Shown: positions 22,485-37,627, counted from the stretch's first letter. The stretch is 64,000 nucleotides of DNA from Candidatus Buchananbacteria bacterium (GCA_903888345.1 CAISTG010000034.1:6823-70822); one strand, 5' to 3'. Numbers and translations: made by a program. The notes: generated by a model from the letters alone, not told the origin.

Positions 22485-23747
22485 CTAGATTTCTCGGAGA
22501 TACTTACGTCCTTTTATTTTAATTGGCAAATACTCTTGCTGTTCTTGATAATCATGATCGGGGCTATATTTATAATCCTTACCATAACCGAGATTTTTCA
22601 TTAACTTGGTCGGCGCATTACGCAAATGAATTGGCACCGGTTCATCAGCCGTTTCTTTAACATCTTTCATGACTGCATTTATCGCCTCATAAAGCTCATT
22701 TGATTTCTTGCATTTCGCTAAATACACCACGACTTGCGCCAAAATAACGTTGCATTCCGGCATACCGATAAAGTGGCAAGCCTGATATCCGGCGACCGCC
22801 TGTTCCAGTGCCTTAGAGTTAGCTAGCCCGACATCCTCGCTCGCAAAGCGAACTAACCGCCGTGCAATATATAATGGATCTTCGCCACCAGCGAGCATTC
22901 GTCCTAACCAATACAAGGCCGCATCAGCATCACTACCACGCAAAGATTTGTGCAAGGCCGAAATAATATTATAATGCTGATCGCCGGTCTTATCGTATAA
23001 ATGCGCATTTCGCTGCAATGACTCCTTAATTAGCGCTTGAGATAATTTAATTATACCAGATTTCAGTGGTTTCGTCGCTTTGACAGAAATCTCTAACACG
23101 TTCAGCGCCGTCCGCGCATCACCATTAGAGAGTAACGCCAAATAACTAATCGCCTCTTCATCGATTTTAATTTTTAAGTAACCTAAGCCCCGCTCCTTAT
23201 CAGCGACAGCCAACTTGATGATATTAGCAATATCAGCTTCGGCTAATTGTTCTAACACAAAAACGCGCGAGCGTGATAATAACGCGGAGTTAACTTCAAA
23301 GGAAGGATTCTCTGTCGTCGCCCCGATTAAAATTACTGTACCATCCTCAACATGCGGCAATAAAGCGTCTTGTTGCGCTTTATTCCAACGATGAATTTCA
23401 TCAATAAATAAAATAGTGCGGCGTTGCTGGAATTTTAACTGTTCTTTTGCTTCGCTGATTAGTTTTTTTAATTCCGCCACGCCCGAGCTGACCGCCGAAA
23501 AGGAAACAAAAATTGAACCGGTAGCGCCAGCAATAATTCGGGCCAAAGTAGTCTTGCCTGTACCTGGCGGGCCCCAAAAGATCATGGACGGGATTTGATC
23601 ACTTTCAATTAAGCGCTTGAGTAATTTGCCCTCACCTACAATTTGCTCCTGCCCAAAAAACTCGGCTAAATTCCGAGGTCTAATTCGATCCGCCAAAGGC
23701 CCTTCTTTGGCCTGTAACGCCTCCAAATTAGCGTCAAATAAATCCAC
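22485..23747 (-). CDS. rarA: Replication-associated recombination protein A (AAA+ ATPase)
   Basis: Walker A GPPGTGKTT, Walker B ILFIDEIHR, and MgsA C-terminal domain. Confidence 0.9.
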   Translation of the reverse strand: MDLFDANLEALQAKEGPLADRIRPRNLAEFFGQEQIVGEGKLLKRLIESDQIPSMIFWGPPGTGKTTLARIIAGATGSIFVSFSAVSSGVAELKKLISEAKEQLKFQQRRTILFIDEIHRWNKAQQDALLPHVEDGTVILIGATTENPSFEVNSALLSRSRVFVLEQLAEADIANIIKLAVADKERGLGYLKIKIDEEAISYLALLSNGDARTALNVLEISVKATKPLKSGIIKLSQALIKESLQRNAHLYDKTGDQHYNIISALHKSLRGSDADAALYWLGRMLAGGEDPLYIARRLVRFASEDVGLANSKALEQAVAGYQACHFIGMPECNVILAQVVVYLAKCKKSNELYEAINAVMKDVKETADEPVPIHLRNAPTKLMKNLGYGKDYKYSPDHDYQEQQEYLPIKIKGRKYLREI

Positions 23748-23874
23748 GGTAACTGATTATGACTAATACCCTAATCATACTTCAATTCGAGTTTTTAGTA
23801 AAATTATGATAATTTATTTTATCTAAATTTAGATAATTTTAATCTAACTAAAAATGTTACAGTGGATAAGTATC

Positions 23875-23903
23875 TTGACAAAATTTGATATATATGATAT
23901 AAT
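23875..23903 (+). promoter_or_regulatory. Perfect-consensus sigma70 promoter (TTGACA-17-TATAAT)
   Basis: ttgaca aaatttgatatatatga tataat. An upstream DnaA-box-like AGTGGATAA (rc TTATCCACT) ends 5 nt 5' of the -35. Confidence 0.65.
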
Positions 23904-24013
23904 TATAATTATCGAAAGAGTACCTTCCCAAGCACTTCGACCAGACAGTTTCTGGCTAGAAGCAAATCAACTATCACCTGGCAGCAAAAATGCCAGACCA
24001 CAGGGAGAAAGAA

Positions 24014-24511
24014 ATGAAGCAGAACAACGAACTCCGCCATGCCCTGACCATCGTGACCGTCATCATGACTGGTTTGCTGTTTATTGGGAAGTTCTTCCCG
24101 ATCAACCAGCACCCGGAACTCCAATGGCTGCAACACGATATCACGCTGTTTGGCTGGATGCTGAGCCCAATCGTCCTGATGCTGTTCTCGGCCTGGAGCT
24201 TCCAGTTCCTGACCGAGAGCTGGAGCGTGGTTTTGCGATACGGTGCCAAGAGCTTCCAGCTGTCCCCACCTTGGTGGCTTGGCCTGATCGCGGGACTAGT
24301 CATAATTGTGCTGACGCTGGTCAACGCAGCTCAGCTAGCCTTGCGAACAATCAACCTTGATCCGGTATCTCAGCAAACCGGGGGGGTTGTTCCGATTTTG
24401 GCAGTTGATGCCCTACTCATCGTCGGGCTCTCACTTGGTTGGTCGCTGTTTAAGACCAATGCGGAAATTGCCAACTTCCTCCATCCCGAAAACCCGCCCT
24501 TCAATATCTGA
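24014..24511 (+). CDS. GC-rich 4-TM membrane protein of unknown function
   Basis: 165 aa from the ATG with SD GGGAGA; an alternative ATG at 23990 gives 173 aa. About 58% GC versus about 38% in flanking genes. It has its own promoter and terminator. Confidence 0.55.
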   Translation: MKQNNELRHALTIVTVIMTGLLFIGKFFPINQHPELQWLQHDITLFGWMLSPIVLMLFSAWSFQFLTESWSVVLRYGAKSFQLSPPWWLGLIAGLVIIVLTLVNAAQLALRTINLDPVSQQTGGVVPILAVDALLIVGLSLGWSLFKTNAEIANFLHPENPPFNI

Positions 24512-24534
24512 GGGCACCATTCAAAGCACACAAA

Positions 24535-24590
24535 AGCCGTCCCCCACCAATCTTCACAGATTGCCACGGGACGGCTTTTAAAATTTTATT
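24535..24590 (+). terminator. Hairpin terminator (AGCCGTCCC...GGGACGGCT + T-rich)
   Basis: Follows the cassette gene. Reading the other strand, the same hairpin follows the stop of 24593..24964. Confidence 0.5.
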
Positions 24591-24592
24591 GA

Positions 24593-24964
24593 TTACTTTT
24601 TCTCTAAGCGCGTATTAACCAACTTCACCACCTCATCTAATTTCCAGTTAGACTTAATCAGATATTCAAAAACTCCTCGCTCTAATGCTTCGGCCGTTTT
24701 ATCCGCCTCCGATAAGTTAGTTAAAATAATCACGGGCACTTTTTCCCCGAGCGGGTCTTGTCGCAATAGCTTCAACATCGTCAACCCATCCATGATGGGC
24801 ATCACAATATCTAACAGAATTAAATCTGGTAGAAACTTTTTAAAAACTGTTAAACCCTCTTGACCATTTTTGGCTACCTTAACATTAAACCCTCTTTTAA
24901 TAAACTTGGCCGATAGGACGCCCCTTAATGATTTCTCATCTTCTACAATTAAAATTTTTTTCAT
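24593..24964 (-). CDS. Stand-alone response-regulator receiver domain (CheY-like)
   Basis: 123 aa; acidic pocket ILIVEDE, phospho-acceptor region DLILLDIVMP, conserved K near the end. Confidence 0.85.
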   Translation of the reverse strand: MKKILIVEDEKSLRGVLSAKFIKRGFNVKVAKNGQEGLTVFKKFLPDLILLDIVMPIMDGLTMLKLLRQDPLGEKVPVIILTNLSEADKTAEALERGVFEYLIKSNWKLDEVVKLVNTRLEKK

Positions 24965-25023: not shown

Positions 25024-25470
25024 CTAGTCCTTAGAGGCGTCATTTTTCCGATTATGCAGCACTCCCTTCAAGTCAGAAATAATCTTCTCTAAACGAAAAT
25101 CTGATTTAGTATAATACTTTTCCACACCCAATCGAAGATAACCAGCAACCTTATCGGGCGAAGCCGTATTAGAAACAACAAAGATTGGAATTTTTTTCCA
25201 CTTTGACCCATCCTCCTTCATCTTAATTACCAAATCCAAACCATTTTCTTTACCTAAGAGATAGTGATCAAGCCAAATCGCATCAATCTTCACCCCTTCA
25301 GTCAAATACTGCAAGGCGGCATTAACTGATCGGGCTGAGACAGTACTAAATCCATTCTTTTCCAATTTTAATTTAATCGCCTCAGCCAAAGGACGCTCAT
25401 CCTCGATAATTAAAATATTATGATTGTTTGTCGCCAATTTAATTGTGGCTGCTGACTGTTTCATATACAA
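25024..25470 (-). CDS. Stand-alone response-regulator receiver domain
   Basis: 148 aa; ILIIEDERPLAE...IDAIWLDHYL receiver pattern with no output domain. Confidence 0.8.
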   Translation of the reverse strand: MYMKQSAATIKLATNNHNILIIEDERPLAEAIKLKLEKNGFSTVSARSVNAALQYLTEGVKIDAIWLDHYLLGKENGLDLVIKMKEDGSKWKKIPIFVVSNTASPDKVAGYLRLGVEKYYTKSDFRLEKIISDLKGVLHNRKNDASKD

Positions 25471-25491: not shown

Positions 25492-27822
25492 TTATTTCGC
25501 CTTACCTTTAGCTTCCATCCCAGCTAATGGTAACAAAATATAAAATTTACTACCTTTGTTTTCATGCGACTCGAACCAAGCCTTACCCTTAACCTCATCC
25601 ATAATTTCTTTGACGATATATAAACCTAAGCCGGTACCCTCAGTATCCATACTTTTAACATTATCAGCGCGAAATAATTTTTGAAAAATCTTCTCTTGTT
25701 GACACTTAGGAATACCATAACCAGTATCTTCAACTGAAAATAAGATGCCTTTTTTATCCCAAGTCATCGAGAGCTTAATTTTACCTTTCTCGGGCGTATA
25801 CTTAACAGCATTAGATAAGTAATTCTGAAAGATCATACGCATTAATTTTGGATCAACATTAACTTGCGGCAAATCATCGGCATAAGTGGCGGTAAAAGAT
25901 AACTTTTTTTCATTAATACCGACCAATTGCTCCTTGACCACCTCTTCTGAGAGTAACTTCAAATCGGTTGGTTGCGGTTCAATAACAAAAGTTCCCAATT
26001 CTAAACGCGAGACATTCAATAAGGTATTAACTAATTCAACCATGCGTTGATTACCGCGATAAATCTCTTTAATGTAATCCTTTTGTTCAGCCGTCAATTT
26101 TCCCGCATCACCATCTAATAGCATTTCCGCGTACCAGTTAATAGCCGAGAGTGGCGTGCGTAATTGATGTGAGGCCAAAGAAACGAATTCTGTTTTCGCT
26201 TTATCGATTTGTCTTTCCTTGGTGATATCCATACTGATAACGGAAACCCCAATAACCTTACCGGCGGCGTTTTTGATGGGCGAGGCAGAAATCGAAACTT
26301 CAACTAAACTGCCATCTTTCTTTTTTCGAACAGTCGCAAAATGTTCAACTGGGTGCCCTCGACCAATCATCACTGAAATTCCTTCGATCTCGGAATATTT
26401 TTCGGGAGGAACAATAATCTTAATTGATTTACCAATAACTTCTGCGGCAGTATAACCATAAAGATTAACCGCTCCATTATTCCAGCCAGTTATTATACCA
26501 CTAAGATCCTTACTAATAATCGGTTCCTCAGCATCACGAACAATCGCTGCCACCTGCTCAGCCTTAACCTTTTCTTCTTCGACATCTTCTAGAATATTTA
26601 AAATCGCCCCTTTTTGATTAATAGCATCCTGTTGCCTCGCTAGTAACTCTTTCGTCTGCTCCTGCACTTTTTGATCGATCTCAGCCTTAGCTTTTTTAAT
26701 GGCGGTCACCATTAAATTAAATGAATTAGCTAAATCACCAATTTCATCCTTGGCTTTAAAGTCAATCTTAAAGTTAAAGTCACCATTTTTTACCTTATTA
26801 GTAAAATGTGACAAAACACTAAGTGGCTTAGTAATCCTGCCGGCTAATATATTGCCCATCACTAACAGCAGCAGGACAATAATTAGACAAGCCACCACAA
26901 TAAAAATAATTAAATTAAACCGATAGGAAAATATCTCCGAAACATCTGCCTTAGTAATTAAACACCAACCAGTTTCCGGAATATAGGCGTGGGTACCAAC
27001 AACTTGAACGCCACGGTAGTCTGTTGCTTGAAGAATTCGTGAATGCTTTTCAATTTTGGCTAACCCACTATAACCATTGGTTTTAACGTAGGCCATTTCT
27101 GCCGGATCAAAACAATTAATGGAATTTTGTGTCTCAACTTTTTGTTTTAAAATAACTTGACCAACCAAAAATATCGACGGTGTAATAAAAAATCTATCAC
27201 TATTAATTAGAAAATTTTCTTCGGTCTTACCGAGTCCATTTTCGTTAAAAACCATTGCATAAAAATCATTAGAGTAATAACGCAAAACTGACACACCAAG
27301 AAAAGTACCGTCGCTATCGAGGATGGGAGCTGAAATAGCATAAGCAAATCCCTTAACCTGTGTGGAAACATAAATACTCTTAAAATACACTCCACTGGTG
27401 GCGTTAACGAAATAATCATCCCGTGACTTGTCCAGACCAACCTCCGACTCAATGGAGGAGGCGACAATTTTTCCCGTCTTATCTATGACCAAAGTCGAAT
27501 GCAAACCGGGATCAGCCAGTAGGGTTCGAGTCAAACGCTTATCAACTTTATCCTTAATAACTCGGTACTGATTGGAAGTGGTTGGTTCTTTTAAAAAATC
27601 AAGATAAACTGAAGCCGAAGCCAAAATAACGGCAGCTATTTCTTTTTGCTGAATATATGTTCTGATGTGCTCCGCCCTTGCCCGATTACTCGAGATCAGA
27701 TAAGCATTTATATCACCCTTAACCAAATTATTAGCATAAATTTCAAAACCGACACCCACTAAAAGTATGCCAATAACAAAAATAGTAAAAAAACTTAAAT
27801 TGATTTTATTTCTAATTTTCAT
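25492..27822 (-). CDS. Sensor histidine kinase: TM - periplasmic Cache-like domain - TM - HAMP - PAS - HisKA - HATPase_c
   Basis: 776 aa. H-box SLASHQLRTPLSAI; N/G boxes NYLSNAVKYT, DTGYGIP, GTGLGL; PAS region IISKDLSGIITGWN. Confidence 0.85.
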   Translation of the reverse strand: MKIRNKINLSFFTIFVIGILLVGVGFEIYANNLVKGDINAYLISSNRARAEHIRTYIQQKEIAAVILASASVYLDFLKEPTTSNQYRVIKDKVDKRLTRTLLADPGLHSTLVIDKTGKIVASSIESEVGLDKSRDDYFVNATSGVYFKSIYVSTQVKGFAYAISAPILDSDGTFLGVSVLRYYSNDFYAMVFNENGLGKTEENFLINSDRFFITPSIFLVGQVILKQKVETQNSINCFDPAEMAYVKTNGYSGLAKIEKHSRILQATDYRGVQVVGTHAYIPETGWCLITKADVSEIFSYRFNLIIFIVVACLIIVLLLLVMGNILAGRITKPLSVLSHFTNKVKNGDFNFKIDFKAKDEIGDLANSFNLMVTAIKKAKAEIDQKVQEQTKELLARQQDAINQKGAILNILEDVEEEKVKAEQVAAIVRDAEEPIISKDLSGIITGWNNGAVNLYGYTAAEVIGKSIKIIVPPEKYSEIEGISVMIGRGHPVEHFATVRKKKDGSLVEVSISASPIKNAAGKVIGVSVISMDITKERQIDKAKTEFVSLASHQLRTPLSAINWYAEMLLDGDAGKLTAEQKDYIKEIYRGNQRMVELVNTLLNVSRLELGTFVIEPQPTDLKLLSEEVVKEQLVGINEKKLSFTATYADDLPQVNVDPKLMRMIFQNYLSNAVKYTPEKGKIKLSMTWDKKGILFSVEDTGYGIPKCQQEKIFQKLFRADNVKSMDTEGTGLGLYIVKEIMDEVKGKAWFESHENKGSKFYILLPLAGMEAKGKAK

Positions 27823-27827
27823 TTTAT

Positions 27828-29102
27828 TTATTTAGACTTTATATCACCAGTATTTTTTTTCAGGGCGGCAATCTCTTGTTTGAGACGAATCATCTCAAGT
27901 TCCCGTCCCACCATCAATTTATTCAACTTTTCTGAATCGATTAAATTTTTCTTTAAACTATTTTCTGATAATTCCAATTTCTTGGTCTTTTCTTTAACTT
28001 TTTTATCTAAATTTTTATACAAATCATCCAATTTTCCCGCCATATCATTAAATGATCTAGCCAAAACGGCAGTTTCATCGGTAGCCTTAAGTTCCGCCTC
28101 ACTTAACTTAATATTAAACTTACCGCCAGCAATTTCTTGAGTAATCTTGCTCAGTCGAGTAATCCTGGTGGTGATCCTACTAACAAATAAAAAAACGATA
28201 ATAATTGTTAAGATAATCGCGGTGACGATCGCCAGAATAAGCGTCAAATTCATGGTCTGTACTAAAGACAACAAGGTGCGCGCTGATTTTTCATAAACGA
28301 CAGTTACTGAACCATTAAATTTATAGCCGACAAAATTATCGCTATCACGAAAACTTCCCTGATTATTATTACCAGCTAAACCAATCGCAATTTTTTTCAA
28401 TTCTATTTCTTCATGATCGGTTGAACTACTGATGCTGGTGATTTTTTCTTCGGTATTTAAGAACATTAGGCCATGACGATCCAATAATTCAACCTTACTA
28501 GCTTGGCCTTGCTGTAAATCCCACAAATAGCCTCGCAATTCGGATAAATCGATAGTGCCGATAATATTCCCAATGACCTCACCCCGGATATTTTTGACTG
28601 GCACCGCTAAACCCAATACCGGATTATTACTAATAGCACTTAGATAGGCTGACGATAGATAGGTTGCTTTAGTTTTAACTACCCCCTGACAATAATCTCT
28701 ACTAGAAAAATCCTTACCAATAAATGGCGCTGAAGCTTGATCACCTCCTACTAAGATGCAAGTCGATCCCTTAATTTCATCTAAACCGATATTTTCAATT
28801 GTCGTAATCGTCTCATTAACGTCCGTAATTTTTTTGGTTACTTGCGCCAGAATAACTGGATCTTTTGTTTCTAAAGCCTCAATAATCAGTGGATCATTAG
28901 CCAAGCTGGTCAAATTATTTTCGGCACGATCAACATAAAAATTAACTAGCTGGGTAACCTGATCAACAGTGTTGGTGATATCAGAATTAAGATGTGCTGT
29001 AATCACGCGATTATTTTGCCAATAAATAAAAGCTCCCATTGCTAAACCGTCGATCAACAAGATCGCGACAATAATTAAAGTTAATTTAAATTTTATCGAC
29101 AT
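27828..29102 (-). CDS. Output-less sensor: TM - Cache-like periplasmic domain - TM - HAMP - coiled coil (chemoreceptor-like but no MA domain, no kinase)
   Basis: 424 aa, 5 nt upstream of the kinase gene. HAMP region ITRLSKITQEIAGGKFNIKL...FNDMAGKL. Ends in the coiled coil ...EKLNKLMVGRELEMIRLKQEIAALKK. Confidence 0.7.
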   Translation of the reverse strand: MSIKFKLTLIIVAILLIDGLAMGAFIYWQNNRVITAHLNSDITNTVDQVTQLVNFYVDRAENNLTSLANDPLIIEALETKDPVILAQVTKKITDVNETITTIENIGLDEIKGSTCILVGGDQASAPFIGKDFSSRDYCQGVVKTKATYLSSAYLSAISNNPVLGLAVPVKNIRGEVIGNIIGTIDLSELRGYLWDLQQGQASKVELLDRHGLMFLNTEEKITSISSSTDHEEIELKKIAIGLAGNNNQGSFRDSDNFVGYKFNGSVTVVYEKSARTLLSLVQTMNLTLILAIVTAIILTIIIVFLFVSRITTRITRLSKITQEIAGGKFNIKLSEAELKATDETAVLARSFNDMAGKLDDLYKNLDKKVKEKTKKLELSENSLKKNLIDSEKLNKLMVGRELEMIRLKQEIAALKKNTGDIKSK

Positions 29103-29107
29103 AGCAA

Positions 29108-30124
29108 TTATTGAGTTAGATTCCGCATAAAGCTAGCGTTAATAATATCCAAGGAATCAATTTTTTGAGTGATTACTTTGCGCTCGAATAAATAGTCGTT
29201 AATCTTACTAATAGCTCCATGAATCGAGCCAAGATTAGGACCGTAAGTAAAAATAGTTAGGTTGTCTTTCAAGCCGATTATCCGATCAGTTGCTGCTAAA
29301 GCCGCTACCTCTTCGGGATAAATATTGTGAATCTGTGCAATAATTGCATAGGCCGCCTGTGGATTGGCTATAATAAACTCCGTGGTTTTATTCCAAACGC
29401 CAACAAAAGCTTGGACATCTTCCGGCCGCGCCTCAATAAAACTACGTTTAAAAACCCAATTACCGAAATTGATCCCCGGCATCTGAGAAGAATCAAAGAT
29501 AATTTTACCCTTACCTTTGTTGGCGGCCTCAGACAAATTCGGTTGCCAGTCGACAATAGCGTCATACTTACCAGAGATAAATCCCGTAACCGCCTCTTCC
29601 GGGGTGGTGTCAATCTTAATAATATCCTCTGCCGGATTTAAATCGTTATTAATCAAAACAACATTTAAAATGTAATCCAAATATGTACCCACAGTGACTG
29701 CAACTTTTTTACCCTTGAGACTTTTGATCGTATTCAAGCCAGTTTTGGCGACAATACCATCAGCGCCAGAAGAAAGATCTGAAGTGAAAACAATATTGAG
29801 GTCTGCACCCTTAGCATTATACTGGATCAAATCAAAGGGCGGAAAGTTAACCGTATCAAGCTTGCCATCAGCTGTATCTTTTAATGATTGGTTATAATCA
29901 GTATTAGTATCAACTAGTTCAACATTGAGCCCAGCCTCCTTAAACCATCCTTTTTGATTGGCGATTTCAACCCAATATGACCCCGGCCAATAATACTTAG
30001 CCACGCGAATTACCTGGCCAGAAGTATGTGGTTGTGATTGCTGAAGGATAAACCAACCGCCAGTTGCTATTAGAGCAAGCATCAAAATAGCACCAACACC
30101 CACAATGATAAATTTATTTCTCAT
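29108..30124 (-). CDS. Membrane-anchored periplasmic substrate-binding protein (NMT1/SsuA/TauA-like)
   Basis: 338 aa; N-terminal TM anchor then a two-lobe SBP fold; 5 nt from the neighbouring gene. Confidence 0.65.
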   Translation of the reverse strand: MRNKFIIVGVGAILMLALIATGGWFILQQSQPHTSGQVIRVAKYYWPGSYWVEIANQKGWFKEAGLNVELVDTNTDYNQSLKDTADGKLDTVNFPPFDLIQYNAKGADLNIVFTSDLSSGADGIVAKTGLNTIKSLKGKKVAVTVGTYLDYILNVVLINNDLNPAEDIIKIDTTPEEAVTGFISGKYDAIVDWQPNLSEAANKGKGKIIFDSSQMPGINFGNWVFKRSFIEARPEDVQAFVGVWNKTTEFIIANPQAAYAIIAQIHNIYPEEVAALAATDRIIGLKDNLTIFTYGPNLGSIHGAISKINDYLFERKVITQKIDSLDIINASFMRNLTQ

Positions 30125-30180
30125 ATTATATATGATAAACCAGAAACGATCAGTTTAGTATAATGAATCGGCTAAACTTA

Positions 30181-31167
30181 TTACTTTTTTTCTGATTGTT
30201 TTTTTAATCTTTCAATCGTATTCTTTAAATCAATCATTTTTAGCTCCCGACCAACTAATAATTTATTTAATTTTTCTAATTCTTCTAGCCGCGCCTTTAA
30301 TTCATTTTCAATTTCCTTTCGTTTTTCAATATTTTCAATTTCCGTAACAAAATATAATGGTTTCTGGCTACTATCCCGTACCAAGCTTGTATGTAAAGAA
30401 ACCCAAATTGTCTTTCCTGCCTTAGTAATATACCTTTTTTCGACATCATAGTTGTTCATCAAACCCGACACCATATTTTTTAAAGCGCCTAAATCTCGCT
30501 TAACCTCATCTGGATAAGTAATTGCCTTAAAATCCAAATTCAATAATTCTTTAGCAGAATAACCCAGTATAGCGCAAATAGCTGGATTAACCTGAATCCA
30601 CTTTCCCGTCGGCGAAACCAATGCCATGCCCAAGGATGAACTATCAAATGCATTCTTAAACTTCTCTTCGCTTTCCTTTAAGCGGTTGGAAACACGCTTC
30701 TCTTCGGTAATATCATGAATAATCCCTACTAAAATTTTATCGCCTTGATCATTTTTATAGACGTTTTTTTTAGTAATAATGGTGTGAGTTTGCCCCTTAG
30801 CATCTGTAAAACACTCTTCATTAATATTATTTTTACCACTTTTTAAAACCTCTTCGTCTTTCGCCCAAAAAACTTCCGCCTCCTTTTTCGGAAAAAAGTC
30901 GAAATCAGATTTGCCAATCAACTCTTCGCGACTGTGACCCTTAAATCGACAAAAGGCATCATTTAACAAAATCCAATGATGTTTACTATTCTTAACGAAG
31001 ACTGGATCACTAATCGCATTAAAAATATCATAAAGAATCTCATCTCTAATAAAAGCTGGATCAATCGACTTAATTGGCTTATTTTTTTTCAAACCCAAAA
31101 TAACTGATTTTATTGCATGGGCAGGATTATGTGATCTGGACTTAGTAACGACCGACTTGTTGACCAT
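30181..31167 (-). CDS. Cytoplasmic tandem-PAS protein ending in the same coiled-coil motif as 27828..29102
   Basis: 328 aa; two PAS-like regions; C-terminus ...EKLNKLLVGRELKMIDLKNTIERLKK. Confidence 0.65.
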   Translation of the reverse strand: MVNKSVVTKSRSHNPAHAIKSVILGLKKNKPIKSIDPAFIRDEILYDIFNAISDPVFVKNSKHHWILLNDAFCRFKGHSREELIGKSDFDFFPKKEAEVFWAKDEEVLKSGKNNINEECFTDAKGQTHTIITKKNVYKNDQGDKILVGIIHDITEEKRVSNRLKESEEKFKNAFDSSSLGMALVSPTGKWIQVNPAICAILGYSAKELLNLDFKAITYPDEVKRDLGALKNMVSGLMNNYDVEKRYITKAGKTIWVSLHTSLVRDSSQKPLYFVTEIENIEKRKEIENELKARLEELEKLNKLLVGRELKMIDLKNTIERLKKQSEKK

Positions 31168-31193: not shown

Positions 31194-31658
31194 TTAACGA
31201 ACAACACTAATTGTAGAACTATTTTCGGCACGCGGCGCGCAGAGTGTAACACGATTAGTGGTAGCGTTTTTATAAATTTGGTAAGCCGTGCCATTAGTAC
31301 TGGTGGTCGTAGGATCAATTGGCATTGATTCTAAATATTTGGCTGTGGTTGAAACTAAATAATAGCCAACATCCGTTAAGCCACTACAAGATCCGCCGGT
31401 CTTACAAATCTCCTGAGCCGCAACACCACAGGCAGTACCATTAATAATCGTCGGCGGCAAGGAACCATTATTGTCGATCGCGTACTGATAAACAGCATTC
31501 AGAATCGAATTAAGATCAGAGCGACGATCAATATTACGAGCATCACCAAATTGTTTAGTGGGATTTAAAGCCATAACAGCAATACCAGCCAAAATAGCAA
31601 TAATAGCAATCACTAGCAATAACTCTACTAAAGTAAAGCCTTGATTTTTAGATTTCAT
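31194..31658 (-). CDS. Type IV pilin / pseudopilin
   Basis: MKSKNQ G|FTLVELLLVIAIIAILAGIAV class-III signal peptide with E+5. Confidence 0.75.
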   Translation of the reverse strand: MKSKNQGFTLVELLLVIAIIAILAGIAVMALNPTKQFGDARNIDRRSDLNSILNAVYQYAIDNNGSLPPTIINGTACGVAAQEICKTGGSCSGLTDVGYYLVSTTAKYLESMPIDPTTTSTNGTAYQIYKNATTNRVTLCAPRAENSSTISVVR

Positions 31659-31735
31659 GTTTTTGAATTAGTTTCAAGCTACAATTTTTAGCCTTTACTA
31701 TTTTATTATAACATACTTGAGTGCGGCCAGCCAAA

Positions 31736-32148
31736 TTATGGTAGCTCTTGCCAAGTAGAACTAATGGTCGGATTAACCGCGGAAACAGAAACCGTTACTC
31801 GTCGAACAACGCCACTAAAAGTACTACTCGCCGTAACGGTTTTGGGTAAGATGCCAGTAACGGCGTAATCACAACTACCTCCATTAATACTCAGACTACC
31901 CGATCCTGTATAACTGGTATTTTCTCGAATCTGCTCCAGTGCGGTCTCAACGCAAGTATTAACTCCGGCTTTTGCTTTATTGGAAGATTGATAAGAAATA
32001 GCGCTTTTAGAACCGCCAGTGCCCAAAAATAATAAAGCTATCGCTACGGAAGCTGCAATAGCTCCGACGATAATAACACTAATTAGCAAGATAAAACCCT
32101 TAGCGCAAGGTAGCCGAACCGCTAAAGTTTTGGGTGTAATTATACTCA
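31736..32148 (-). CDS. Minor pilin-like protein lacking Glu+5 (GspK/PilX-like); start trimmed to the internal ATG
   Basis: MSIITPKTLAVRLPCAKG|FILLISVIIVGAIAASV. The ORF-track start at 32242 would overlap the upstream pilin gene by 142 nt; start 32148 overlaps it by 49 nt. Confidence 0.4.
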
Positions 32149-32606
32149 TTGGTAGTAGACGAAGTATTAAGTTTACTAAGAGTGAATTGAATGCGAATGG
32201 AACCATTGGCAAAGTTAGAAAATGTCGTATTAGTGATAGCAACGTGACTATCAGTCAAATTAATTGGACTAGCTGTTCCCTCTTTAATTCTTAGGGTTCC
32301 GCTGGCTACATCAAAGACCGTGGGCGAATTAACTCCGGTGGGCACAGTAATAGTCAATGAGGTTGAAGTCGCACCACTGATCGGTGTAGTAATAGCGGTA
32401 GCATTCCTAATGATTTGTGTCATTTTTGTTAAAACCAAAGTACCTTGCTGTTCGACTTCCGCCACGGACTGCGCCTTGACTCGAACCGATAAAGCTAAAG
32501 AAAAAAACTGTGACAGCGCCAATAAAATAATGGCAGCGACAGCTACATAGATCAAAAGTTCCACCAGCGTAAATCCCGATTGTTGATTTTTATTAATTAT
32601 CTTCAT
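32100..32606 (-). CDS. Type IV pilin / pseudopilin
   Basis: MKIINKNQQSG|FTLVELLIYVAVAAIILLAL prepilin leader. Confidence 0.75.
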   Translation of the reverse strand: MKIINKNQQSGFTLVELLIYVAVAAIILLALSQFFSLALSVRVKAQSVAEVEQQGTLVLTKMTQIIRNATAITTPISGATSTSLTITVPTGVNSPTVFDVASGTLRIKEGTASPINLTDSHVAITNTTFSNFANGSIRIQFTLSKLNTSSTTNEYNYTQNFSGSATLR

Positions 32607-32609
32607 AAA

Positions 32610-34391
32610 TTAATTACGCCACCAAGCAAATGAATAGGGACTATTAATAGATTGCGGCAAACTAAGTTCAATTGCAGCGCCATCAGAATTAGTCCAAGTA
32701 AAAGTCGGCGTAGCATTCATGACTAAGCGCTTACAAAACAAATCGCTCGCATTATCAGAAGTACAAAACATCAATTGATCTTTACTTAAGGGATTTGTGG
32801 TAATTTGGTAATGTTTTTGCGGATTAGCAAAAACTGGAGCCGGTACAAAAACAGTCGGATTAGAACCATTAGTTGGTGCCCAAGTGTTACCAGTTGGATT
32901 ATATTGACGGTAATTAATGCCGGTAGTCCCACTATCGTTATAAACAACGATCGCCCTGGTGGTAGCTCCAGAAATTAGCCAGCCAGTCGCCACTAATTCC
33001 GACCCAGCGACCGGAATTTGCGCCGAGGTATCCGTATTAGCTGAATTCGTCCAAGCCGAACCGTTCCAATAACCAACTTGTAGATCGCTTTGGTTAGTAC
33101 CAATCGAGGCAAAGATCATTTCATCACTATTCGGATTGGCAGACAAATCGAGATTGACCGAATCATCGGCAAAAGTAGCTGGAGTCGACGTAGCCCCCCA
33201 AGTACAGGTCGCAGTTCCGCCAGTACACGCGCGATAACGGACACCATTAATATTAGCGGCAACAGTAGTACCCCAAATCATCATCAAGTCACCCGACACC
33301 GATTCATATTCTAGGTCAAAATCATCCACGTCTTGAGCTGCCGTCACAAAATCAAGATTGGCATCAGAAACCGCTGATGGCTCATTACCCCAAGAAGAGC
33401 CGCTCCAAATCATAGCCGATAAACCAGCATTAGCATCCGCCCACTGAGCCGCAATTAAATTTTGACCAGCCCGTCGATCCCAAGCCATTTTAATCCACTG
33501 AATAACGCCAGTCGTTCGCAGAACGCTATAATTAGTATTAACTGACCAGTTAGCCGAACCGCAGCCAGTATTACCGGCCTTGGTACGATAACCAAGCTGG
33601 GAACTGCTGCCACCGACATTATTACTAAATAAAACCAGGGCATCACCAGTGGCCGTTTCATAAGCGATATCAAAACGACGAGTTGTGCCAGTGCCACCGA
33701 CAGTAGTTGTCCATTCTTGATGCCAAGAACCATCATAACACAAAACATTCAAGACCCCGGCAGCTGTTACGAATCCGGCAATGGCCTCCTGATTAAGTGG
33801 AGAGGTGCGAACAACAAAGGTATTTCCACTAGCATTAGCTGTAATCGCCGCTTCCGTACCAAAATTATTTAAAGTTGTATTATAAGCGCGGTATTTCGTG
33901 CTGGTAGTGCCGTCACCATAAAGCAGGAGGCCACCTAGGGCCGCAATTGTTCGCTGCCAATTTGTTAGCTGTGTAGTCAAAGAAAAAGTCGAGGTTCCTA
34001 GTCCGGTATTATAACTGACGGTACTAGTAATAATTTTTGTATAGGAGCCAGAGTCAGCAACATCTAAATGGCGATTAAAGATCCCATTATTATCGGAAGT
34101 TCCCGATAAAGCCCAAACGCCTGCCGCGGTTAAACCGTAGGTTCCAGCCGTCAGGCTACTATAAGAAGTATCTCGTAGACTCCGAGCTGCTTCTAAACCC
34201 TCTTCGGCTAATAACATCGCCCGAGAATTGGCACCAGCGACCTGAACACTCTGCACGGCATAAGCTAACGCTCCCACCAAAACTGCGGCAATCAACATGA
34301 ATATCCCCAACGCTAAAACAGCCTCAACCAAAGAGAAGCCAGAAAGATTGTTGCTATTTTTATCGGGGCTAGACACAAACTGCTTCATCAA
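32610..34391 (-). CDS. Large prepilin-type protein (593 aa; candidate tip/adhesin minor pilin)
   Basis: N-terminal SG|FSLVEAVLALGIFMLIAAVLV methylation motif followed by about 550 aa of Thr/Ser/Gly/Asn-rich beta-rich sequence. Confidence 0.7.
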   Translation of the reverse strand: MMKQFVSSPDKNSNNLSGFSLVEAVLALGIFMLIAAVLVGALAYAVQSVQVAGANSRAMLLAEEGLEAARSLRDTSYSSLTAGTYGLTAAGVWALSGTSDNNGIFNRHLDVADSGSYTKIITSTVSYNTGLGTSTFSLTTQLTNWQRTIAALGGLLLYGDGTTSTKYRAYNTTLNNFGTEAAITANASGNTFVVRTSPLNQEAIAGFVTAAGVLNVLCYDGSWHQEWTTTVGGTGTTRRFDIAYETATGDALVLFSNNVGGSSSQLGYRTKAGNTGCGSANWSVNTNYSVLRTTGVIQWIKMAWDRRAGQNLIAAQWADANAGLSAMIWSGSSWGNEPSAVSDANLDFVTAAQDVDDFDLEYESVSGDLMMIWGTTVAANINGVRYRACTGGTATCTWGATSTPATFADDSVNLDLSANPNSDEMIFASIGTNQSDLQVGYWNGSAWTNSANTDTSAQIPVAGSELVATGWLISGATTRAIVVYNDSGTTGINYRQYNPTGNTWAPTNGSNPTVFVPAPVFANPQKHYQITTNPLSKDQLMFCTSDNASDLFCKRLVMNATPTFTWTNSDGAAIELSLPQSINSPYSFAWWRN

Positions 34392-34420
34392 TCAATTAAT
34401 ATTTATTCAGATTGTTTAGT

Positions 34421-34846
34421 TTAGTAATCAACCAAACCCTTAGCATTGACACTTATGATCTTACGATCACCTGAATCTGAACTCAAGGTAATGGAAGTCG
34501 AGGCTACCGGTTCTCCAGTAAATTTTGAGAAGTTAATATCAACAACAGTCGAAGTAACGCTAGCCGGCAGACTGTAGGGCTCATCATAGTTACTGTTGCG
34601 TGAACCAAAACTAGCACCGACATAAACAGTAATACTAGAGGTAGAAAAATAGGTACCCCAATTATTATCTTGCTCCATATTAACGGCTAACAATTGCGCT
34701 CGTCGTAGTGACCGCACTCCCGCCTCGGTAGCTAAACCGAATTCATTATTTGTTTGGTAAGAAAAATATACCGGTGTCGCCAAACCGATCAAGATGGCCA
34801 TAATCGCCACAGATAGCACCATTTCTACTAAAGTAAAACCACGCAT
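34421..34846 (-). CDS. Type IV pilin / pseudopilin
   Basis: MRG|FTLVEMVLSVAIMAILIGLATPVY. Confidence 0.75.
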   Translation of the reverse strand: MRGFTLVEMVLSVAIMAILIGLATPVYFSYQTNNEFGLATEAGVRSLRRAQLLAVNMEQDNNWGTYFSTSSITVYVGASFGSRNSNYDEPYSLPASVTSTVVDINFSKFTGEPVASTSITLSSDSGDRKIISVNAKGLVDY

Positions 34847-34863
34847 TGCAAATCATTTAATTA

Positions 34864-35964
34864 TTAAAGGCTACCGACAAGACTATAAATCGGCAAGATA
34901 ACAGCAATCGCCACCGCCAACACAACCAAACCAACCATTAATAATAAAAACGGCTCCAGAATTACTGAGATGTTTTTAGATGTCATCTCCATTTTTACTT
35001 CATAAATAGCGCCAACCTTGACTAAGGTATCAGCTAAATTGCCGGATTGTTCGCCAGCAATGATTAATTGTTTTACTGTCGACGGTATTAGGATGTTGGC
35101 TTTTTTCATCGACTCGAAACTACGTCGTAATGATTTACCCTCTTCAATATCTGCCGATAGTCTACGATAAAACCTTTTATAGGGAGCATAATTAACCGAT
35201 TCGACTAATGCATCAAGCGCTTCAACAATTGGCAGACCAGCATTGAGCAAAGTACCGAAAATAAACCCAAAACGCGCGACTTCTGCTTGTCGCACCAACC
35301 GCCCTGAGCCAGGCAAATATAGTAATAAATTCTGACCAATAAATTTAGTGAAACGAAAAAAGAAGAAAAAATAAATCAGGGCCACTAACGCCAAAAATAC
35401 ACCGGGCACAACAATCAAACCATAAGCAGTGACAAAATTACCAACATTAATCATGATACGAGTAACTAGAGGTAATTCAACGTGCAATGAAGAAAAAACT
35501 TTAGCGAACTTAGGAATAATAAAAACGGTTACGCCCACTCCAACAACGCTAGCCACTGTTAAAACTACTAGTGGATACATCATCGCTGATTTTATGTTAG
35601 ATTGAAAGCTGCGATTTTTTTGTTGTTGCAGGGCGACCACCTTTAGATTATCTATCAAGCGACCAGAACGCTCGCCCAGGTTAATTAAGGCTAACGCCTG
35701 ATTATTAACCAAGCCAGTACCAGCAAAAGCTTGATATAAGGACGAACCACTTTCAATTTCTGCCACCAAATAATCAATAAACTTAATCATACGTCGTCGC
35801 ACCGTTTCTTCGCGCACAGCTTTAATAGCGGACAAAACATCCATGCCGGCAGTAAGCAACATGAGAAGATTTTCAATAAAATTTTCCCGGTCTTCGGTAT
35901 AACCAAAGCCGGGTAAACGAACTTTTTTAGTATTAGATTTCTTACTGTTAGTTTTACCAGCCAT
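34864..35964 (-). CDS. pilC: Type IV pilus / T2SS platform protein (GspF/PilC family)
   Basis: 366 aa; two T2SSF repeats, 3 TM helices. Confidence 0.85.
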   Translation of the reverse strand: MAGKTNSKKSNTKKVRLPGFGYTEDRENFIENLLMLLTAGMDVLSAIKAVREETVRRRMIKFIDYLVAEIESGSSLYQAFAGTGLVNNQALALINLGERSGRLIDNLKVVALQQQKNRSFQSNIKSAMMYPLVVLTVASVVGVGVTVFIIPKFAKVFSSLHVELPLVTRIMINVGNFVTAYGLIVVPGVFLALVALIYFFFFFRFTKFIGQNLLLYLPGSGRLVRQAEVARFGFIFGTLLNAGLPIVEALDALVESVNYAPYKRFYRRLSADIEEGKSLRRSFESMKKANILIPSTVKQLIIAGEQSGNLADTLVKVGAIYEVKMEMTSKNISVILEPFLLLMVGLVVLAVAIAVILPIYSLVGSL

Positions 35965-35968
35965 AAAA

Positions 35969-37627
35969 TTACTTTTTGGGACTAAGTATGATTGGCGTGG
36001 CGACTCTAGTCACCTCCTCAATGGTAGTTGTTCCGGTCAACACTTTGGCAATACCATCTTCAAACATCGAGATACTACCCTGTTTTTGGGCCAACTGCCA
36101 AATCTGTAACGACGAAGGATGGGTCAAAATTAATTCTTGTAACTCCGGTGTAATAGAAATGATTTCAAATAAAGCAACACGCCCCGTATAACCAGTACCA
36201 TGACAAATCGGACAGCCCTTACCCTGATATAACGTCAAATCACCAGACTTGAAAAAGCCCCTGACTTGTGGATATTTAGCTACTAACTGTTCAGTCTTGA
36301 CCTTGTAACTAACACGGCAATTCTCGCAAATTTTTCGTGTCAGACGCTGGGCCATAATCAACTGTAAAGTCGAGGCTAACAAAAATGGTTCGGCACCCAT
36401 ATCCAATAAACGCGGAATACCGGTGGCGGCATCATTAGAGTGAAAAGTGGATAACAATAAATGACCGGTCAAAGCGGCGTTAATAGCAATATCGGTAGTT
36501 TCGGGGTCGCGTATTTCACCAACCATAATAATATCAGGGTCCTGACGAACTATCGAACGTAAACCCTTAGCAAAAGTTAAATTGGTGGCTGTATTTACTT
36601 GAATTTGATTAACGCCAGAGATTTTATACTCAACTGGATCTTCAATAGTAGTAATATTGACGTCGCGGCTATTAATTTTCTTAAGAATCGCATAAAGCGT
36701 AGTGCTTTTGCCGGAACCGGTCGGCCCAACCGTTAAAATCATGCCAAATGGCTTTTCCGAAGCGGCTTCAATAACTTTTTGATCACGCAAAGACAAGCCT
36801 AAATCACTTAAACCATAACCACGAACATAGTGTGATAACAAACGAATAACGATTTTCTCGCCGTCTAAAATCGGCACAATCGAAACGCGCATATCCGCCG
36901 CAATACCTTCACGCTCATAAAACATTGATCCGTCTTGGGCAGCATAATGTTCATCAGTACGCAAGCGACTTTTTACTTTAATACGGTTAACGATACCCTC
37001 ATAAAATTCTTTGGGCAAACGTCCCGCCTCGGCTAAAATGCCATCAATACGGAATCGCACCACCACCTCATAAGGCTCGGGCTCAAAGTGAATATCCGAA
37101 GCACGGTAAGTAATCGCGTCAGAAAAAATTTCATCAACAATTTCAGGAGCAATCCGATGTTTTTCTTTAATAATTTGAGAAAATCTCGTCGCTAATTCCT
37201 GACGATAGGAAACCAAAACAGTATTAATGTCTTCAGTTAGCGAGTAGGCAATTTTAACATTTTTACCATACGCCTTAATTAAAACTTCTTTCAATTCTTT
37301 ATTGTCCGGCTGATCTGTAGTAATTACAAGACTTTTCGGAGTTTTCTTAAATAATACAATGCGATATTTAATGGCTAAGTCTTCAGTCACCAATTTAACC
37401 TGCTCCGCGTCAGGCATATTCGAATTCAAGTCGGCGTAAGGTACGCCAAAAAATTCCGCCATGGCCTGGCCGAATACATCTTTATCTAATAAGCCCTCGT
37501 CAAATAAATAGTCAATGATTTCAATATGCCGCCTAGCTGTTTCCGCTTCCGCGGTGAGCCAGTCAGCTTCTTCCAGGTACCCTCCTTCGACCAGGATTTT
37601 TTTGAGTTGTTGTTGATTTAATTCCAT
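35969..37627 (-). CDS. pilB: Type IV pilus assembly ATPase (GspE/PilB family)
   Basis: 552 aa; N-terminal GSPII_E_N domain, Walker A GPTGSGKSTT, Asp box, His box, and tetracysteine CENC...CPIC. Confidence 0.9.
   Translation of the reverse strand: MELNQQQLKKILVEGGYLEEADWLTAEAETARRHIEIIDYLFDEGLLDKDVFGQAMAEFFGVPYADLNSNMPDAEQVKLVTEDLAIKYRIVLFKKTPKSLVITTDQPDNKELKEVLIKAYGKNVKIAYSLTEDINTVLVSYRQELATRFSQIIKEKHRIAPEIVDEIFSDAITYRASDIHFEPEPYEVVVRFRIDGILAEAGRLPKEFYEGIVNRIKVKSRLRTDEHYAAQDGSMFYEREGIAADMRVSIVPILDGEKIVIRLLSHYVRGYGLSDLGLSLRDQKVIEAASEKPFGMILTVGPTGSGKSTTLYAILKKINSRDVNITTIEDPVEYKISGVNQIQVNTATNLTFAKGLRSIVRQDPDIIMVGEIRDPETTDIAINAALTGHLLLSTFHSNDAATGIPRLLDMGAEPFLLASTLQLIMAQRLTRKICENCRVSYKVKTEQLVAKYPQVRGFFKSGDLTLYQGKGCPICHGTGYTGRVALFEIISITPELQELILTHPSSLQIWQLAQKQGSISMFEDGIAKVLTGTTTIEEVTRVATPIILSPKK

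Follow-up and report, generated by a model that had tools for sequence, protein, structure and literature searches.

Two sensor proteins which seem to have no output domain share a conserved C-terminal sequence, predicted to be helical, which we call the tail. In related proteins from Bacteria and Archaea the tail nearly always lies at the very end of such sensors, and it is often encoded right next to a histidine kinase carrying a second, unannotated repeat motif. We suggest that the tail is a plug and the repeat a socket, by which separate sensors are attached to one kinase. The functional partnership is well supported by comparative genomics, whereas direct binding is only inferred. We consider this explanation more likely than not.

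Two sensors with a shared C-terminal motif

The window analyzed here is a stretch of 64,000 nucleotides from Candidatus Buchananbacteria bacterium. On its minus strand it encodes a membrane sensor of 424 amino acids (27828..29102) and a cytoplasmic sensor of 328 amino acids (30181..31167). According to Pfam, the first protein has a dCache_1 and a HAMP domain and the second has two PAS domains, and neither has an output domain. The C-termini read EKLNKLMVGRELEMIRLKQEIAALKKNTGDIKSK and EKLNKLLVGRELKMIDLKNTIERLKKQSEKK, respectively, and both conform to EKLNKL[ML]VGREL[EK]MI.LK..I..LKK. Pairwise BLASTP aligns 48 residues at 56% identity (E = 3e-9), and this is the only significant similarity between the two proteins. 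The original prediction had stated 17 identities in 20 residues and a similarity extending to the DNA. We find 19 of 26 identical residues, and 15 within the first 20. The DNA similarity is weak, as only 51 of 78 nt are identical and only 9 of the 19 identical residues use the same codon. Thus, the peptide is conserved and a recent DNA duplication can be rejected. The match is nevertheless well beyond chance. A hidden Markov model of the motif built without the sequences of the window hits only these two proteins in the six-frame translation of all 64 kb (E = 1.4e-16 for the PAS-PAS protein and 3.3e-15 for the dCache-HAMP protein; next best E = 0.8).

In the PAS-PAS protein the tail comprises amino acids 285-326 (EIENELKARLEELEKLNKLLVGRELKMIDLKNTIERLKKQSE; 30190..30315, minus strand). 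Its core VGRELKM lies 17 residues before a TAA TAA stop, which is followed by 56 nt before the next gene. The V of the core lies 26 residues after NIE, the residues occupying the position of the PAS "DIT" motif. In the dCache-HAMP protein the tail comprises amino acids 378-419 (LSENSLKKNLIDSEKLNKLMVGRELEMIRLKQEIAALKKNTG; 27846..27971, minus strand). Here the core VGRELEM lies 20 residues before the TAA stop, and the ATG of the kinase gene follows 5 nt later. AlphaFold2 in single-sequence mode models one unbroken helix of 82 residues from HAMP AS2 to the C-terminus (model residues 48-129, pLDDT about 95).

The kinase (25492..27822, minus strand; 776 amino acids) is complete, with the order dCache-HAMP-PAS-HisKA-HATPase. 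It is the next gene after the dCache-HAMP gene and the third after the PAS-PAS gene. Between its HAMP and PAS domains it carries one copy of the second motif, the LNILED unit (amino acids 399-426, DAINQKGAILNILEDVEEEKVKAEQVAA; 26545..26628, minus strand), with AILNILED at amino acid 406. A model of this unit built without the window's own row hits only this open reading frame in the six-frame translation of the window (E = 2.5e-8; next best 4.6). The closest relatives of the kinase, in two of the loci collected here, L020 and L002 (54% and 46% identity), are likewise directly preceded by tail genes. Between the two sensors lies a gene for an NMT1/THI5-like solute-binding protein with an N-terminal membrane anchor (29108..30124, minus strand; Pfam NMT1, E = 5e-20), probably a ligand-binding co-receptor, although this role is inferred. 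Similar genes lie next to HAMP-tail genes in loci L003, L011, L016, L027, L059 and L061. The kinase gene is followed by two genes for stand-alone receiver proteins (25024..25470 and 24593..24964, both minus strand; Response_reg, E = 2.5e-24 for the latter), the first of which is the probable phosphoryl acceptor of the kinase. One or two such genes follow the kinase in most related loci. A Patescibacteria orthologue set (locus L035) keeps the same four genes with the same stops at 36-46% identity. Therein the PAS-PAS protein is 46%, the dCache-HAMP protein (411 amino acids) 40%, and the solute-binding protein 36% identical.

Distribution of the tail and its association with the LNILED repeat

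A first protein search returned only short fragments, which were useful as seeds but are biased in length. The profile finds 17,113 cluster representatives (50% identity level) at E <= 1e-3 and 4,194 at E <= 1e-10 across Bacteria and Archaea. In the best 150 together with the seed sequences, the last core motif lies a median of 24 residues from the C-terminus, and within 40 residues in 163 of 176. The same holds for 80 genome loci from at least 12 phyla. V, G, R, E, L and M of the core are invariant in an alignment of 26 sequences, and the consensus of the tail is ELE[RK][FL][NQ]KLxVGRELKMIELKKEI..L. Of 115 long members 102 have PAS, 17 REC, 5 HAMP, 4 GAF, 4 PocR and 4 dCache domains, and none of the true members has a kinase core. 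The distance from the PAS "DIT" motif to the V of the core is 26 residues in 138 cases and 33 residues in 26 cases.

We then analyzed the gene neighborhood. A kinase is the very next same-strand gene for 38 of 84 tail genes, compared with 37 of 896 for other genes (Fisher p = 1.5e-24). The start and stop codons usually overlap; the gap is -17 to +50 nt in 36 cases and 147 and 234 nt in the other two. A kinase lies within four genes for 62 of 84 tail genes. We note, however, that the remaining 22 have no kinase within this distance (21 with neighbors to inspect and one at a contig end).

The LNILED unit has the consensus tQ[RK]AxLNILEDxxxEKxxL and occurs in one to seven 21-residue repeats in these kinases and in three HD-GYP enzymes. 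It is found in 44 of 54 downstream kinases, thus 10 lack a recognizable unit, and in 3 of 29 other kinases of the same loci (p = 2e-10). All three of the latter lie in tail loci. Among other genes it occurs in 2 of 887, both HD-GYP genes directly downstream of tails, and it occurs in 0 of 85 tail genes. The repeats are spaced exactly 21 residues apart in 30 of 31 cases. In 9 of the 12 short kinases measured, the last repeat lies 38, 45 or 52 residues from the phospho-acceptor His, and in the other three 47, 56 and 70 residues. In short kinases the unit is at the very N-terminus, so that both motifs flank the gene junction.

As a reciprocal test, a metagenome scan using only an LNILED pattern returned 80 loci, of which 74 had enough upstream sequence to test. 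Across all 80, 71 had a tail-encoding open reading frame ending at the start of the LNILED gene. Many of these loci are, however, orthologous operons from a few lineages, and the associations are partly non-independent. One protein (P0039) is a natural fusion in which the tail, a 20-residue Pro/Gly linker and LNILED follow each other in one chain. Otherwise the two motifs never share an open reading frame in 163 loci, and a search with the fusion segment found only one unrelated hit. In a minimal case, a protein of 74 amino acids which is little more than the tail is encoded directly upstream of a 285-residue kinase with two LNILED units.

Proposed assembly and alternative explanations

We suggest that in the window both sensors, the membrane dCache-HAMP protein, probably working with the NMT1-like binding protein, and the cytoplasmic PAS-PAS protein, dock through their tails onto the single LNILED unit in the HAMP-to-PAS stalk of the adjacent kinase. 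Together they would form a split, multi-input kinase which phosphorylates the two stand-alone receivers. The tail is in fixed heptad phase with the sensor domain and the LNILED unit with the phospho-acceptor His. Helix movements driven by the sensor could therefore pass across the junction much as through an ordinary intramolecular signalling helix. The tail core is net basic (+0.9 per 14 residues), the LNILED unit is net acidic (-2.1 per 21 residues), and both helices carry conserved hydrophobic residues off the a/d seam. Physical evidence is lacking, and both motifs are too conserved for covariation analysis. AlphaFold2 on the natural fusion, in single-sequence mode, gave a helix-loop-helix without confident packing (pTM 0.33). 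The window has two tails but only one LNILED unit, which leaves the stoichiometry unexplained. Moreover, LNILED stalks also occur fused directly to PAS with no tail (loci L092, L103 and L111), and the repeat therefore has a role as an ordinary signalling stalk as well. These results support the original prediction of a portable docking or dimerisation helix that lets either sensor pair with a partner, possibly the adjacent kinase. Its remark that a DHp domain would normally begin at this point is only loosely right, because profile comparison finds no relationship to DHp.

Alternatively, the tail could be only a homodimerisation zipper or a leftover signalling helix from the fission of a longer kinase gene. 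Its co-occurrence with LNILED would then reflect inheritance of one ancestral operon, and the sensors would act on the kinase through PAS-PAS, HAMP-HAMP or membrane contacts, or not at all. Indeed, the C-terminal half of the tail has a clean a/d heptad seam (positions +6, +9, +13, +16 and +20 from the core V), the only similarities in the PDB are designed coiled coils, and, as mentioned, many loci of the reciprocal test are orthologous and LNILED stalks exist without tails. However, a plain zipper needs neither an invariant V-G-R-E-L-x-M with Arg at a core position nor conserved hydrophobic residues on the opposite face (V0, L+4 and I+7). The association also holds across unrelated sensor types (PAS, HAMP and REC), two effector classes and both bacterial and archaeal phyla, and a protein that is essentially the tail alone is kept upstream of an LNILED kinase. 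In our view this explanation is unlikely.

Still more doubtful is that the tail mimics the H-box helix of a DHp domain with the His replaced, acting as a pseudo-substrate or as a DHp-intercalating inhibitor or activator, and binds the DHp or catalytic domain or the receiver rather than the LNILED stalk. The core (GRELKMIEL) may superficially resemble H-box strings such as SHELRTPL or RIARELHD, the tail sits where a DHp would follow in a full kinase, and kinase and receiver genes are commonly nearby. However, there is no His in the core, and a search of the tails against Pfam finds no HisKA family at E <= 10. With hhalign, a profile of 241 tails against a DHp profile from 72 kinases gives a probability of 0.3% and does not align the core to the H-box. 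LNILED against DHp gives 1.8%, and tail against LNILED shows no similarity. Nor does this model explain why LNILED tracks the tail so tightly. Finally, truncation of two kinase genes by sequencing error, frameshift or pseudogenisation is for practical purposes refuted, although output-less sensors upstream of a kinase could in principle arise from a broken gene, since the clean stops leave no remnant sequence, the downstream kinase has its own membrane anchor and sensor domains, the orthologues keep the same stops, the motif is C-terminal in nearly all of the best 150 representatives and no true member has a kinase core.

Relation to known systems and biological meaning

No Pfam or NCBIfam model covers either motif, and both are thus currently invisible to annotation. 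There is no tblastn match to PLSDB plasmids. In the literature searched no paper contains the motif strings, the few LNILED-like strings are unrelated, and nothing describes this system. Only sub-threshold hits to bZIP_1 and bZIP_2 were found (E = 0.04-1.2, far below the curated cut-offs), and there is no basic region N-terminal of the zipper. If the signalling helix (Anantharaman, Balaji and Aravind 2006) is taken as a coiled coil with an ERT-like signature joining two domains within one protein, the tail does not conform, as it is terminal and its conserved core is GRE. A segment resembling a signalling helix (KVKEKTKKL) lies just before the tail of the dCache-HAMP protein and is distinct from it. 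In split histidine kinases such as CheA3/CheA4 and Hik36-Hik43 (PMC3591291, PMC7656254) one kinase function is also distributed over two polypeptides encoded close together, but the split lies between the DHp and the catalytic domain. Here the partner kinase has both HisKA and HATPase_c, the tail proteins have neither, and the split lies between sensor and transmitter. Short LOV and PAS-only proteins with C-terminal J-alpha helices and archaeal REC-(PAS/GAF)n regulators without outputs (PMC5847659) likewise have sensor domains followed only by a helix and are presumed to signal by protein-protein interaction. Galperin and co-authors note that such architectures are abundant in archaea and that their targets are unknown. 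In the parts of that work consulted here, no conserved terminal motif or cognate partner motif is described for them.

Tentatively, one could go further and regard tail and LNILED as a universal code, by which any sensor module (PAS, HAMP, Cache, GAF or a phosphorylatable REC) ending in the tail can be plugged in trans into any effector whose stalk carries LNILED units. The number of units (1 to 7) would set how many sensor dimers one kinase can integrate. This would give a function to thousands of output-less PAS and REC-PAS proteins and to sensor-less soluble kinases with repeat-rich N-termini, and would provide a portable connector for building synthetic multi-input kinases.

Genomes, especially those of archaea, Patescibacteria and many environmental bacteria, encode large numbers of PAS, HAMP or REC-PAS proteins with no recognizable output as well as soluble kinases with no recognizable sensor. 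How either class signals is an open question, noted for archaea (PMC5847659). If the tail and the LNILED repeat are a cognate docking pair, both classes are explained together as halves of split, multi-input kinases, and partners could be predicted from sequence. In the window the system sits directly downstream of a type IV pilus cluster, which suggests that pilus-related behavior in a Patescibacteria-like organism is controlled by at least three sensory inputs converging on one kinase.

Gene order and the shared C-terminal tail

The genes studied here are encoded on the minus strand. The first gene codes for a PAS-PAS protein (31167..30181, 328 aa) and is followed by genes for an NMT1/THI5-like binding protein (30124..29108, 338 aa), a dCache-HAMP protein (29102..27828, 424 aa), a complete dCache-HAMP-PAS-HisKA-HATPase kinase (27822..25492, 776 aa) and two stand-alone receivers (25470..25024, 148 aa, and 24964..24593, 123 aa). 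The operon lies directly downstream of a type IV pilus cluster (31194-37627, minus strand), which comprises a T2SSE ATPase with an MshEN domain (35969-37627), a T2SSF platform protein (34864-35964), three proteins with the N-terminal methylation motif and a 593-aa protein with a pilin-like N-terminus. The roughly 850-nt stretch between the last receiver gene and the MgsA-like AAA+ gene (22485-23747), that is, 23748-24592, holds only overlapping plus-strand open reading frames, one of which is hydrophobic and 173 aa long (23990-24511), without a Pfam match. Rfam finds nothing in this stretch.

The PAS-PAS protein and the dCache-HAMP protein have no output domain. They end in EKLNKLLVGRELKMIDLKNTIERLKKQSEKK and EKLNKLMVGRELEMIRLKQEIAALKKNTGDIKSK, and BLASTP finds this as the only significant similarity between them (27 of 48 identical, E = 3e-9). 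The original prediction stated that 17 of 20 residues match and that the similarity extends to the DNA. The count is slightly off, as the identity is 19 of 26 residues and 15 of the first 20. The DNA similarity is only 51 of 78 nt and only 9 of the 19 identical residues share a codon. Therefore selection acts on the peptide, and there has been no recent duplication. Both genes stop cleanly: one has TAA and then 5 nt to the kinase ATG, the other has TAA TAA and then 56 nt to the next gene.

We then asked how widespread this C-terminal motif, hereafter the tail, is. A word-index search with the two tails returned 37 short proteins, all sharing ELE[RK][FL]N.L.VGRELKM[IV]ELKKE. With a profile of these proteins we searched 1.84 billion cluster representatives and found 17,113 proteins at E <= 1e-3 and 4,194 at E <= 1e-10. 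Although the lengths of the best 150 proteins range from 59 to about 1,000 aa, the match almost always ends at the C-terminus. Across all 183 sequences collected, the last core motif lies a median of 24 residues from the end, and within 40 residues in 163 of 176. The main exceptions are four Patescibacteria tail proteins (L005:7623-8333, L009:7578-8357, L020:7188-8354 and L060:7158-8336; the prefix L denotes our numbered loci) which continue for about 65-90 residues after the tail with a conserved, helical-looking extension (...D.S..HE..L..L..YEN.K). Of 115 long members, 102 have PAS, 17 REC, 5 HAMP, 4 GAF, 4 PocR and 4 dCache. The only sequence with a kinase core is a 4,799-aa protein that matched through its PAS linkers and lacks the core motif. 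Thus, the finding named in the original prediction as speaking against it, a helix routinely followed by HisKA/HATPase, is not observed. No Pfam or NCBIfam model and no PDB chain covers the motif, and none of the papers searched contains its sequence.

The tail is in fixed heptad phase with the sensor domain. The distance from the PAS 'DIT' motif to the V of VGRELKM is 26 residues in 138 cases and 33 in 26 cases, which differ by one heptad, and in the PAS-PAS protein of the window the equivalent 'NIE' is 26 residues upstream. AlphaFold2 (single sequence) models the last 82 residues of the HAMP protein of the window as one unbroken helix from HAMP AS2 to the C-terminus, with pLDDT about 95. Column statistics show a normal a/d seam in the distal half (+6, +9, +13, +16, +20). 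The invariant Arg (+2), however, falls on a core position, and conserved hydrophobic residues (V0, L+4, I+7) lie on another face. This is more than a plain dimer zipper requires.

Neighbouring genes and a second motif in the kinases

A scan of one genome per species returned 80 loci from Patescibacteria, Gamma- and Deltaproteobacteria, Bacteroidota, Planctomycetota, Acidobacteria, Actinobacteria, Nitrospirota, Omnitrophota, methanogens, Thermoplasmatota and DPANN archaea. We called the open reading frames ourselves and classified them with iterated HMMs seeded from the kinase core and the receiver of the window. Of 84 tail genes, 38 are followed immediately by a same-strand kinase gene. The gaps are -17 to +50 nt in 36 of the 38 (147 and 234 nt in the other two), and many are 4-, 8- or 11-nt overlaps. 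A kinase within four genes is found for 62 of 84, usually followed by receiver genes. For all other genes in the same loci the figure for an immediately following kinase gene is 37 of 896 (Fisher p = 1.5e-24 against the 38 of 84). The locus L035, from a Patescibacteria genome, has the same four genes in the same order as the window at 36-46% identity, with each protein ending at the same place. A membrane-anchored NMT1/THI5-like solute-binding protein gene, as found in the window at 29108-30124, recurs next to HAMP-tail sensor genes in Patescibacteria (L003, L011, L016, L027, L035, L059 and L061), and L059 has four of them around one HAMP-tail gene. This suggests a binding-protein co-receptor for the dCache/HAMP sensor. 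Prepilin-like genes occur within six genes of the tail gene in 13 of 75 loci, mostly Patescibacteria, although this count comes from pattern matching only.

The downstream kinases share a motif that we had also seen in the kinase of the window, tQ[RK]A-x-L-N-I-L-E-D-x-x-x-E-K-x-x-L, hereafter LNILED. In short soluble kinases (284-495 aa) it forms two to six N-terminal tandem copies, and up to seven in the metagenome loci described below, with a spacing of exactly 21 residues in 30 of 31 cases. In 9 of the 12 short kinases measured the last copy lies 38, 45 or 52 residues from the phospho-acceptor His, again in heptad steps; the other three lie at 47, 56 and 70. In Patescibacteria-type kinases there is one copy between HAMP and PAS, which in the window is DAINQKGAILNILEDVEEEKVKAEQ at aa 399-423. 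Pfam sees only HisKA and HATPase in the short kinases and nothing over the repeats.

The motif tracks tail-adjacent effectors closely. In the genome loci it is present in 44 of 54 kinases that are first downstream of a tail gene, but in only 3 of 29 other kinases, all three of which lie in tail loci (p = 2e-10). It is further found in 2 of 887 other genes and in 0 of 85 tail genes. The two other genes code for PAS-HD-GYP proteins directly downstream of tail genes, and a third such HD-GYP protein carries the variant AMLYILED. These PAS-(GAF)-HD-GYP phosphodiesterase genes (L022:348-2465, L062:8138-9190 and L067:1729-3345), which overlap the tail gene by 4 nt or follow it with a gap of +4 nt, carry LNILED-like units (AMLYILED, AFFNMLED). 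The motif is therefore not restricted to kinases. Within the window, HMMs built without the window sequences hit only the two tails and only this kinase in the six-frame translation of all 64 kb.

Reciprocal search, fusions and minimal forms

We also searched in the opposite direction. A metagenome scan with the pattern [QE][RK]Ax[LV]N[IML]L[ED]D returned 80 loci which were selected without any reference to the tail. In 71 of the 80 loci an open reading frame encoding ...ELE[RK]FQKLTVGRELKM[IV]ELKKE... ends at or a few nucleotides from the start of the LNILED gene. At least 250 nt upstream of the first repeat are present in 74 loci, and of the nine loci with no tail five have fewer than 250 nt. 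Three (L092:1967-3751, L103:443-2152 and L111:349-2574) are unsplit relatives in which a PAS domain runs straight into three or four LNILED repeats and then the kinase core, with no tail upstream. We note, however, that these 80 loci are dominated by one subfamily and so are not independent events. Even so, together with the forward search they show the association from both sides.

The two motifs never share an open reading frame in 163 loci. One cluster representative, P0039, has PAS, then the tail, then a 20-residue Pro/Gly-rich linker, then LNILED, then PAS-PAS and a second tail. AlphaFold2 in single-sequence mode gives helix-loop-helix for the tail-linker-LNILED segment, but the pTM is 0.33 and nothing can be said about packing. 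The representative P0100 likewise has an internal tail followed by further sensor domains and a second, terminal tail, and others (P0040, P0045, P0054 and P0060) carry two tails in tandem, separated by 40-60 residues. At the other extreme, P0012 (L161:5001-5225) is a 74-aa protein with no sensor domain that is little more than the tail. It overlaps the start of a 285-aa kinase with two LNILED units (L161:5203-6060), which is followed by a receiver and a receiver-kinase hybrid. Receivers fused to the tail (REC-tail or REC-PAS-tail) are found in L015, L039 and L074 and in 17 of 115 representatives, and in L039 a 198-aa REC-tail gene follows two kinase genes. Such fusions would make docking phosphorylation-dependent and could link kinases into cascades.

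A proposed plug-and-socket connection

We suggest that the tail and the LNILED unit form a plug-and-socket connection. In this best-supported reading the tail is the output module of sensors that have no enzymatic domain, and the LNILED unit is its receptor in the stalk of the effector. In the short kinases plug and socket flank the gene junction. This is the arrangement expected if a helix-loop-helix was split at the loop, and it would favour assembly during coupled translation. Both helices are in fixed heptad phase with their domains, PAS or HAMP on one side and the phospho-His or a PAS on the other. A bundle formed between them could therefore carry conformational signals as an intramolecular signalling helix does. 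The charge is mildly complementary, with +0.9 for the tail core and -2.1 for the LNILED unit. Conservation, position, helix prediction, adjacency and two-way co-occurrence make the functional partnership very likely in our view. Direct docking of the tail to LNILED is inferred and only somewhat more likely than not, and the stoichiometry (two plugs against one socket unit in the window) and the sign of regulation are likewise inferences.

A plain dimer zipper or a fission remnant without contact to a partner appears unlikely. It would not explain the invariant G-R-E, the second conserved face, the spread across unrelated sensor and effector types or the stand-alone tail peptide. More doubtful still is that the tail mimics an H-box and acts on the DHp or CA domains. 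We considered this possibility because of a string resemblance, but profile-profile comparison gives it no support (0.3%). Truncation or pseudogenisation is excluded for practical purposes.

The proposed system works like an accessory co-sensor of a kinase, and in its logic it resembles the docking domains of modular synthases. The tail is probably not an S-helix in the strict sense, as it is terminal and not inter-domain, nor is it a DHp. It also differs from the known split kinases, which are split between DHp and CA (PMC3591291, PMC7656254). A review of archaeal two-component systems notes abundant REC-(PAS/GAF)n proteins without outputs and proposes protein-protein interaction, but does not describe this motif in the passages we consulted (PMC5847659). 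Within the limits of the literature searched we found no description of either motif. Thus, while trans-acting sensors of kinases are already known, the connector is apparently new and very widespread. For the window, this reading means that the dCache-HAMP sensor, probably with the NMT1-like binding protein, the PAS-PAS sensor and the kinase's own dCache and PAS domains converge on one kinase and two receivers.
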